A stretch of 64,000 bases of DNA from Escherichia coli (GTDB taxonomy: Bacteria > Pseudomonadota > Gammaproteobacteria > Enterobacterales > Enterobacteriaceae): the NCBI RefSeq assembly GCF_003334255.1, contig NZ_QOWU01000005.1. The stretch is one strand, 5' to 3'. Both the position numbers and the translations under genes were made by a program. The notes beneath the pieces are model-generated. The model did no database searches. It was not told the DNA's origin and saw only the letters and a list, made by a program, of their open reading frames with translations. Positions 27,037 to 28,480 of this stretch are shown here, in pieces (position 1 is the first letter of the stretch; the number at the start of each line of letters is the position of its first letter).

Positions 27037-27051
27037 TATGGTTTTATAAAA

Positions 27052-28056
27052 TCAAACTTTATAGAAGTTACGATACCATTCTACAAAGTTCTTTACCCCC
27101 TCTTTAACTGACGTTTCAGGTTTGAATCCTATTACGTCATACAGTGCTTTTGTATCAGCACTGGTTTCCAGTACATCACCGGGTTGGAGAGGCATCATAT
27201 TCTTGTTGGCTTCAATACCCAGAGCCTCTTCTAAGGCATTGATATAGTCCATTAACTCCACAGGCGAACTATTACCAATGTTATAGACACGATATGGTGC
27301 TGAACTTGTTGCTGGCGAGCCTGTTTCTACAGCCCACTGTGGATCTTTTTCTGGAATAACATCCTGTAAGCGAATAATAGCTTCGGCAATATCATCAATA
27401 TAAGTAAAGTCACGCTTCATTTTGCCGAAGTTGTAAACATCAATGCTTTTACCTTCCAGCATGGCTTTAGTGAATTTAAATAATGCCATATCCGGACGTC
27501 CCCATGGACCATAAACCGTAAAGAAACGCAGCCCTGTGGTCGGTAAGCCATACAAATGAGAATACGTATGGGCCATGAGTTCATTCGCCTTTTTAGTTGC
27601 TGCATACAGCGAAACAGGATGATCTACAGAGTCATCTGTAGAGAAAGGCATCTTGCGGTTCATGCCATAAACAGAACTGGAGGAAGCGTAAAGTAGATGC
27701 CGAACATTATTATGGCGACATCCTTCCAGTATGTTCAGGAATCCAATCAGGTTTGCATCTGCATATGCATTGGGATTTTCAAGGGAGTAACGTACACCGG
27801 CTTGCGCAGCGAGGTTTATTACGCGTTCGAACCGCTCGTCTGCAAACAGTGCCGCCATTTTCTCACGATCGGCCAGGTCAATTTTATAAAAACTGAAGTT
27901 GTCGTGCTTGAGTAAATCAAGTCGTGCTTGTTTGAGGTTGACATCGTAATAATCATTTAAGTTGTCAATGCCTACAACCTGATGACCAGCTGCAAGAAGC
28001 CGTTTACTTACATAGAAACCGATAAAGCCAGCAGCTCCCGTAACCAGAAATTTCAT
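27052..28056 (-). CDS. gla: NAD-dependent nucleotide-sugar epimerase, probable UDP-glucuronate 4-epimerase
   Basis: 334-aa ORF; Rossmann motif VTGAAGFIGFYVSKRLL and SDR catalytic YAATK; symbol assignment is tentative. Confidence 0.65.
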   Translation of the reverse strand: MKFLVTGAAGFIGFYVSKRLLAAGHQVVGIDNLNDYYDVNLKQARLDLLKHDNFSFYKIDLADREKMAALFADERFERVINLAAQAGVRYSLENPNAYADANLIGFLNILEGCRHNNVRHLLYASSSSVYGMNRKMPFSTDDSVDHPVSLYAATKKANELMAHTYSHLYGLPTTGLRFFTVYGPWGRPDMALFKFTKAMLEGKSIDVYNFGKMKRDFTYIDDIAEAIIRLQDVIPEKDPQWAVETGSPATSSAPYRVYNIGNSSPVELMDYINALEEALGIEANKNMMPLQPGDVLETSADTKALYDVIGFKPETSVKEGVKNFVEWYRNFYKV

Positions 28057-28232
28057 TTATAATCCTCGCTCAGGCTAGAATATAGCCAATATTCATCTGG
28101 CATAACTGAAAGTTAAATCATACCGTTAGACAAGAAAAAAAGATAATCGGTATCAGTTCTAAACCTGGCTGTTTTTTCTGGTAACGTGCTCATTTTACAA
28201 TCAAAGCTGTTCTAAGCTGACTATTAGCCACC

Positions 28233-28334
28233 TTCAAACAACAAGCCGACGTCATTATTTCCAACCGTATGGCAGAAGAGCTTAAGGATGTGGCAGATAA
28301 GGTCTATACCCGCGATCTCTTTGGCAGAGACTAA
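28233..28334 (+). pseudogene. diverged duplicate of the ugd 3' end (about 33 codons)
   Basis: Translates to [33 protein letters not shown]-stop, versus the ugd C-terminus [33 protein letters not shown] at 26885..26986. Confidence 0.7.
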
Positions 28335-28480
28335 CATCCTGTTATCAGGGCGATTTTCGCCCTGATTCTCTTATGTTCCCTTTGTAATAATTCATTATTT
28401 TTATCATTTATCCTATAGCATTCATGGCGATTATCACTAAACTATGGCGACTTAAAATTATTTCGTCCATTAGGGTAATG

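Follow-up and report, generated by a model that had tools for sequence, protein, structure and literature searches.

We analysed a stretch of 64,000 nucleotides (nt) of Escherichia coli DNA (RefSeq assembly GCF_003334255.1, contig NZ_QOWU01000005.1), called the window in what follows, and in particular a short second copy of the 3′ end of ugd, the gene for UDP-glucose 6-dehydrogenase, which lies between a reverse-oriented epimerase gene and wzzB. E. coli strain 214-4 has an O-antigen region with 99.9% identity to the window (window coordinate = locus coordinate of strain 214-4 + 8699). In the annotation of strain 214-4 by the Prokaryotic Genome Annotation Pipeline (PGAP), the order is wca, galF, an O167-family wzx/wzy cluster, gnd, ugd, an opposite-strand ‘NAD-dependent epimerase’, a 111-nt pseudogene, wzzB and the his operon; the O-antigen locus of the window is of the E. 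coli O167 type. The fragment (28227..28334, + strand) represents the last 35 codons plus the stop of ugd (nt 1060-1167 of the K-12 gene, 108 nt), and we interpret it as a non-coding scar, namely as the remnant of a resident K-12-type ugd.

Two lineages of ugd are distinguished here: we call A-type the ordinary K-12-type lineage and B-type the gla-linked lineage to which the intact ugd of the window belongs. From left to right, the gene gnd (6-phosphogluconate dehydrogenase, 24165..25571, + strand, from the PGAP annotation of strain 214-4) is E. coli-type, with a nucleotide identity of 96% to K-12 gnd and of 84-87% to gnd of Citrobacter, Enterobacter and Kluyvera. It is followed by a B-type gnd-ugd spacer (25582..25819, + strand) and by the intact B-type ugd (25820..26986, + strand), whose product of 388 amino acids (aa) scores 798 bits against the NCBIfam model NF011631 (cutoff 757) and which is predicted to be a functional gene. 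This ugd and the gene called gla or uge are convergent and have in common a bidirectional terminator hairpin (27003..27038, both strands), with a perfect 16-17-bp stem, T runs on both strands and folding free energies (dG) of -25.1 kcal/mol (z = -5.9) on one strand and -24.4 kcal/mol (z = -6.7) on the other. The gla/uge-type gene itself (27052-28056, - strand) is predicted to encode an intact NAD-dependent UDP-glucuronate/galacturonate 4-epimerase of 334 aa, and its upstream region (28057..28226, - strand), with a ribosome-binding site and a presumed promoter, reaches as far as the remnant. Beyond the remnant there is the orphaned terminator of the old ugd (28344..28366, + strand; 10-bp GC-rich stem, T-rich tail, dG = -16.6 kcal/mol, z = -5.7), then wzzB, the O-antigen chain-length determinant (28481..29458, + strand, PGAP coordinates of strain 214-4 shifted by +8699), which is E. 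coli-type, and its 3′ neighbour hisIE (29554-30165, - strand). The genes gnd and wzzB are the left and the right homologous flank, respectively.

The initial annotation of the window had described a 33-codon copy of the ugd C-terminus at 28233..28334, on the far side of the reverse-oriented epimerase gene and about 75-80% identical in nucleotides to the end of the intact ugd at 26885..26986. This description proved to be accurate, except that homology to ordinary E. coli ugd starts at 28227, i.e. 6 nt 5′ of the position first noted. The sequence 28233-28334 translates to 33 residues and then a stop, the epimerase gene lies between ugd and wzzB with the fragment on its far side, and the alignment of the two ugd ends is gapless, with 79/102 identical nucleotides (77.5%) and 28/33 identical residues; 16 of the 23 nucleotide differences fall at third codon positions. 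The similarity is significant: the remnant is the only secondary match of ugd within the window (BLAST E = 3.9e-17), and a comparison with every 102-nt frame on either strand gave a background of 25.6 +/- 4.5 matches, with 46 in the next best frame against 79 in the remnant. A repeat search of the window also recovered the two ugd tails, as one direct-repeat family (102-108 nt). The fragment does not belong to another, intact gene, since it has no start codon, in-frame stops stand just upstream, no + strand open reading frame of at least 30 aa covers it and PGAP reports at 28224-28334 (111 nt) in strain 214-4 a pseudogene ‘missing N-terminus’, with only ‘hypothetical protein’ as product label.

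For the comparison with other strains we surveyed 5426 complete E. coli genomes and considered as carriers those with this gla lineage at an identity of at least 95%. The remnant is identical at 99-104 of its 108 positions (92-96%) to the intact A-type tails of the other strains compared, and at 81/108 to the local ugd tail 1.3 kb leftward, so that the duplicate belongs to the K-12-type lineage of ugd. In E. coli genomes that are not carriers (about 4300-5000), all matches among those listed begin exactly at 28227, inside the intact ugd of these strains, and continue through the ugd terminator into wzzB with identities up to 97.8%. The wzzB flank, contiguous with the remnant, is 90% identical to K-12 and up to 97.8% identical to other E. 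coli, and the terminator kept with the remnant lines up with the spacer that ordinary E. coli have between ugd and wzzB.

The intact ugd gave a different result, being ~75% identical in nucleotides and 84% in amino acids to that of K-12, with a divergence that is even in every 100-nt segment; this evenness along the gene rules out a mosaic with an internal crossover. Because the remnant resembles A-type tails at 92-96% and the local ugd is divergent throughout, the remnant is probably what is left of an A-type ugd, and the working ugd would be the newcomer. The same figures bear on a local origin, in which gla alone would have been inserted into the 3′ end of ugd, the tail would have been duplicated like a long target duplication and the copies would have diverged in place. 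Two direct copies of 102-108 nt do flank an inserted gene, as such an event would leave them; however, the copies are 75-77% identical to each other and the remnant is 92-96% identical to the tails of other strains, the local ugd differs by 25% from the K-12 type over its entire length and not in its tail alone, and there are neither a transposase nor terminal repeats, so that we regard this explanation as extremely improbable. A tandem or segmental duplication in situ was rejected, as the two tails are not each other's closest relatives.

The divergent sequence forms a block of 2645 bp (~25582-28226) with the gnd-ugd spacer, the B-type ugd, the bidirectional hairpin, the epimerase gene and 170 bp upstream of the latter. 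At its left edge (~25581/25582) the window stays identical to K-12 until 10 nt beyond the stop codon of gnd; from there on the two diverge, with the stem of the gnd terminator still recognisable. The B-type spacer that begins there is 95-99.6% identical among carriers and strains with a mosaic ugd (see below), and 34% identical to K-12 in an ungapped, position-by-position comparison. The right edge is abrupt: B-type sequence ends at 28226/28227 (...GCTGACTATTA to the left, GCCACCTTCAAAC... to the right of the joint) and no ugd-like sequence was found left of this joint. The first ~90 nt of the gla upstream region (28057-28226) are homologous to the sequence upstream of gla in Citrobacter sp. 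FP75 (the BLAST match reaches 28147), and the last 79 nt before the joint had no match among the sequences compared; no consensus sigma-70 promoter for gla was found in 28057-28226. The left edge grades into homologous E. coli-type gnd and the right one is sharp, a pattern that would fit a homology-anchored crossover in gnd combined with an illegitimate right-hand joint. Origin of the block from an insertion sequence (IS) or transposon was ruled out, because we found no transposase open reading frame within 25582-28226 and no terminal inverted or direct repeats or target duplication at the block ends, where the sole notable inverted repeat is the terminator.

The epimerase has the motifs of the short-chain dehydrogenase/reductase (SDR) proteins, with GxxGxxG at residue 7 (GAAGFIG) and YxxxK at residue 151 (YAATK). 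It is 81% identical in amino acids over its full length to PDB 5U4Q, which we take to be a Klebsiella entry, and matches with E = 3e-43 the group of epimerase chains of PDB 6ZL6, presumably the UDP-glucuronate 4-epimerase of Bacillus cereus. It reaches no NCBIfam equivalog cutoff (GalE 145 vs 262 bits, TviC 120 vs 760, the dehydratases also below), and by these models it is therefore neither GalE nor TviC. In Klebsiella pneumoniae, uge is the gene of the UDP-galacturonate 4-epimerase (PMC11282780). The adjacent ugd is predicted by its NCBIfam match to make UDP-glucuronic acid (UDP-GlcA), and the epimerase fits, by homology and gene context, a UDP-GlcA/UDP-galacturonic acid (UDP-GalA) 4-epimerase retained where galacturonic acid (GalA) is needed; the block would then supply UDP-GalA for O antigens with GalA. 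Strain LL004 is reported to have GalA in its O unit and the same 334-aa gene 65 nt past ugd on the complementary strand, which its authors named gne, stating that gla always maps elsewhere (PMC8657804). The ugd-gla spacing of LL004 is the same 65 nt as in the window, and its 408-nt gap to wzz is that of a variant of the joint in which 16 nt are deleted. The O167 O antigen has an amide-linked L-alanine (PMC7685785), which an ATP-grasp amidoligase of the O167 cluster fits; according to PGAP in strain 214-4, the cluster encodes this amidoligase and glf. GalA or its amide is present in both O167 and LL004.

In the survey, 279/5426 genomes (~5%) were carriers, all with the gene on the chromosome. 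The joint was spanned in 275 genomes by a 240-nt probe centred on it and in 277 by a 447-nt probe, and these genomes are of several serogroups: the carriers belong to O167, O178, O159, O113, O158, O155 and one unnamed type, i.e. at least six. The joint occurs in different forms. Besides that of the window there are one with one extra A (O113, strain PM4-5), the one with 16 nt deleted across the joint (O178 and O159), which is apparently the commonest, and one in strain STEC384, in which the last ~40 nt before the joint (locus 4700-4747, window 28187-28226) are about half identical and the rest of the block is 96-98% identical. In E. coli, copies of this gla lineage lacking the scar were not seen, with the joint spanned in 277/279 carriers. 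As the joint is common to the carriers and no scar-free copy was seen, the data indicate that a single old event took place and that the scarred module then spread. Counting the other lineages as well, a gla-like gene is present in ~10% of complete E. coli genomes, essentially always on the chromosome, and in 13/13 loci examined this gene sits in the gnd-his region adjoining ugd.

A function of the fragment was considered as an alternative. It could be kept as part of the wzzB control region, as a small peptide or RNA, or as a homology arm selected for swaps of the gla module; indeed, it has no private decay, its polymorphisms are those that other strains have in their intact A-type tails, and the terminator behind it is undamaged. 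Such polymorphisms are, however, expected from recombination tracts that run through the remnant, and from their sharing with intact tails we deduce that homologous exchange still passes through it. A start codon is missing, in-frame stops precede the fragment, no Rfam family matched the region 26900-28500, and the commonest variant lacks 16 nt across the joint while another has 1 nt more. As for a swap arm, the longest identical run between the two ugd tails is 11 nt. A length of 11 nt is below the minimum for efficient RecA-dependent recombination. Given this short run, the two tails are unlikely to recombine so as to excise gla, and we hold a retained function of the remnant, in any of these forms, to be very unlikely.

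B-type sequence is not restricted to carriers. A further 684 complete E. coli genomes match the ugd region of the window at 80-90% identity, and in three of them that were examined (NZ_AP042564.1, for example, with ugd at locus 2739-3905) gla is absent and ugd is a mosaic, made of the B-type gnd-ugd spacer and the first ~300 nt of B-type ugd (95-100% identical to the window), a part of neither type from nt ~300 to ~420 and A-type sequence from ~420 onwards. This class of 684 genomes suggests that B-type sequence is an old and common component of E. coli variation. At the protein level, Ugd of the window is 90-92% identical to the Citrobacter, Enterobacter, Kluyvera and Klebsiella-type alleles, gla-linked Ugd proteins are 88-93% identical among themselves, and K-12-type Ugd is the outlier, with 83-84% to all others.

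The order gnd and ugd on one strand, gla on the other, wzzB on the first and hisIE again on the other was also found in Citrobacter sp. FP75, in Citrobacter werkmanii, in three Enterobacter and in one Kluyvera. These loci have the same genes in the same order as the window, with ugd and gla convergent; they differ from it in that no second ugd tail lies between gla and wzzB, and their DNA is 74-80% identical. In a scan in which the Gla protein was compared with species-representative genomes, the best blocks outside E. coli had these nucleotide identities to the block of the window, and the closest Gla had 87% amino acid and 80% nucleotide identity. With blocks only 74-80% identical, none of these relatives is the donor, which would be unsampled.

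Other E. coli have other gla loci. Strain 08-3342 (O111:H2, locus 673-4507) has a different gnd-ugd-gla block at the same site, closest to that of Citrobacter werkmanii (gnd 91%, gla 88% nucleotide identity); an internal stop makes its gla a pseudogene, which fits retention of gla where GalA is needed, and no second ugd tail was found in this O111-type locus. E. coli Ec-050-T5-MAC (NZ_CP086500.1, locus 3328-5843), with a Klebsiella-like O8 locus, has ugd, a co-oriented gla of another lineage and a 93-nt ugd tail, annotated by PGAP as partial UDP-glucose 6-dehydrogenase, which is 86% identical to its own ugd tail and 72-73% to the tails of the window. This is an independent second case of the same pattern, ugd, gla and ugd tail.

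Two more loci were noted. NZ_AP045762.1 (locus 846-8015) has between ugd and wzzB a gla of yet another lineage, which is 75% identical to that of the window and bracketed by IS4 on one side and by IS600/IS30 fragments on the other. In CP026762.1 (a 4.58-Mb chromosome, locus 1-2576), with an identical Gla protein, IS66-family genes adjoin wzz, replacing hisIE.

We consider it probable, at about 80%, that the fragment is a recombination scar which arose when a foreign B-type ugd-gla block replaced most of a resident A-type ugd. An ancestor with the ordinary order gnd, A-type ugd, wzzB would have taken up the 2.65-kb block from a relative having ugd and a convergent gla/uge between gnd and wzzB. 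The left end would have been joined by a homologous crossover at or in gnd, and the right end non-homologously, so that the 170 bp upstream of the incoming gla came to abut the resident ugd at nt 1059/1060. The old gene would thereby have lost its first 1059 nt, whereas its last 108 nt, its terminator and the control region of wzzB would have been retained. The incoming B-type ugd would have assumed the ugd function, and gla would have added the step from UDP-GlcA to UDP-GalA, needed by O antigens containing GalA such as that of O167. Later the scarred module would have moved among lineages and serogroups by homologous recombination through its flanks, remnant included.

The initial annotation had seen in the fragment a footprint of homologous recombination or insertion that brought the epimerase gene, and possibly the adjacent O-antigen cluster, into this chromosome from a donor with a different ugd allele. 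A recombination footprint with two different ugd alleles is supported, and the matches in strains without the epimerase, which start at 28227 within ugd, agree with it; the assignment of the alleles has to be reversed, as the ugd there called genuine would be the incoming one (~75% identical to K-12) and the fragment the resident one. The epimerase gene does stand between ugd and wzzB, as was said; it would have arrived not as a lone gene but within a unit of whole ugd and gla of ~2.65 kb, which strictly would have replaced most of the old ugd rather than slipping in between ugd and wzzB. Of the two modes proposed, homologous recombination suits the left side, and the right joint is non-homologous. 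The scar is real and its event not private to this chromosome, the same joint being present in 275-277/5426 genomes. Nothing ties the O-antigen cluster to the same event: as it stands today, the divergent tract reaches no closer to gnd than 10 nt past its stop codon, and this gnd is itself of the E. coli type.

The transfer may also have gone the other way. A chromosome that contained gla would in this case have received an A-type fragment, from nt 1060 of ugd into wzzB/his, with a non-homologous joint in the gla-wzzB spacer and a homologous one further right, and the final structure would be identical. Two further facts fit such a transfer, namely that B-type Ugd lies inside the Enterobacteriaceae cluster (88-93% aa), with the K-12 type as outlier (83-84%), and that the order with gla is native in three sister genera. 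We nevertheless favour import of B-type into A-type, because the scar-free A-type arrangement is the majority state and scar-free B-type gla was not seen in the 5426 E. coli genomes; moreover, with 277/279 carriers spanning the joint, all carriers would have to descend from one chromosome that was given a truncated A-type fragment. On these grounds the reverse direction appears unlikely.

Some points weigh against replacement of a resident A-type ugd by a foreign block. The structure alone does not give the recipient side, and the scan of species-representative genomes found no donor of the block. Import from another species is suggested by divergence, and B-type sequence may instead have long been polymorphic within the species rather than recently imported, as the 684 genomes of the mosaic class could indicate. 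Later recombination could have shifted the left boundary to where it now lies. The activity of gla and the dependence on GalA are predictions from sequence and context; the O antigens of O113, O159 and O178 are likewise taken to contain this sugar.

A broader reading is that the K-12-type ugd is the odd one out, that the gla-linked order is ancestral and that the 3′ end of ugd is a recurrent breakpoint for swaps of ugd-gla modules at the O-antigen locus. It is prompted by the second scar, that of the Klebsiella-like O8 locus with ugd, gla and the 93-nt tail, and by the 684 mosaic-ugd genomes; we put it forward tentatively, as a possibility with rather less than even odds. If it were true, gla would be a mobile, serogroup-linked accessory of the O locus and not, as reviews treat it, a housekeeping gene ‘elsewhere in the chromosome’.

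The structure has parallels in known systems. Flanking genes such as gnd are known to carry deep, even intergeneric alleles, and Nelson and Selander reportedly described in 1994 how gnd and its neighbours hitch-hike, with intergeneric transfer, together with the O-antigen region. Our case is like gnd hitch-hiking in having deep allelic lineages and mosaics in the housekeeping genes that flank the O locus, and the O111 block is Citrobacter werkmanii-like; it differs in that gnd of the window is E. coli-type and the deep split is in ugd, where it is fixed by a non-homologous joint. In naturally transformable bacteria, de Vries and Wackernagel are said to have described in 2002 homology-facilitated illegitimate recombination, which also has one homologous anchor and one non-homologous end, with replacement and net gain of foreign DNA; here the mechanism is deduced from the end product alone. 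Klebsiella pneumoniae uge/gla(KP) is alike in its full-length amino acid identity of 81% (to 5U4Q), in its SDR motifs and in its position next to ugd, but it is a core gene for the GalA of core lipopolysaccharide, whereas the E. coli gene is accessory and tied to particular O antigens. Gene remnants have been counted in nine E. coli O-antigen clusters (Liu et al. 2020, PMC7685785), where, as here, polysaccharide genes were exchanged in the past and a flanking or housekeeping gene left a partial, dead copy as the trace; unlike those, the ugd remnant is situated between ugd and wzzB, beyond the cluster proper from galF to gnd, and is found in several serogroups rather than in one cluster. The scar is an ordinary recombination footprint of a recognised class, with no new mechanism. 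No published description of the ugd remnant was found in the full-text literature searched, and the same literature appears not to describe that several serogroups share this ugd tail or that gla is accessory and linked to the locus.

Elsewhere in the window, a JUMPstart element (Rfam RF01707, 60 bits) is located at 13664-13702, downstream of galF, and after it, immediately 5′ of the O167 wzx, there is a degraded ISAs1-family transposase pseudogene (about 13854-14296). Other Rfam matches reach the gathering score at 3565-3635, 8256-8326, 3722-3771 and 39496-39570: within the colanic-acid region these are naRNA4, present twice, and an algC RNA motif, and beyond the 3′ end of the his operon STnc240.

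With the scar, one end of an old gene-transfer event can be placed, which helps in reconstructing exchange at the O locus. For annotation, the fragment should be labelled as a ugd pseudogene and the epimerase as gla/uge; in practice, the result can be used in predicting the sugar content of O antigens from genomes and in setting locus boundaries for in-silico serotyping. A review places the UDP-GalA genes at conserved loci elsewhere on the chromosome (PMC7685785). Contrary to this and to PMC8657804, our analysis shows that the predicted gene of the UDP-GalA pathway in E. coli is an accessory module beside ugd, which travels with the O-antigen region.

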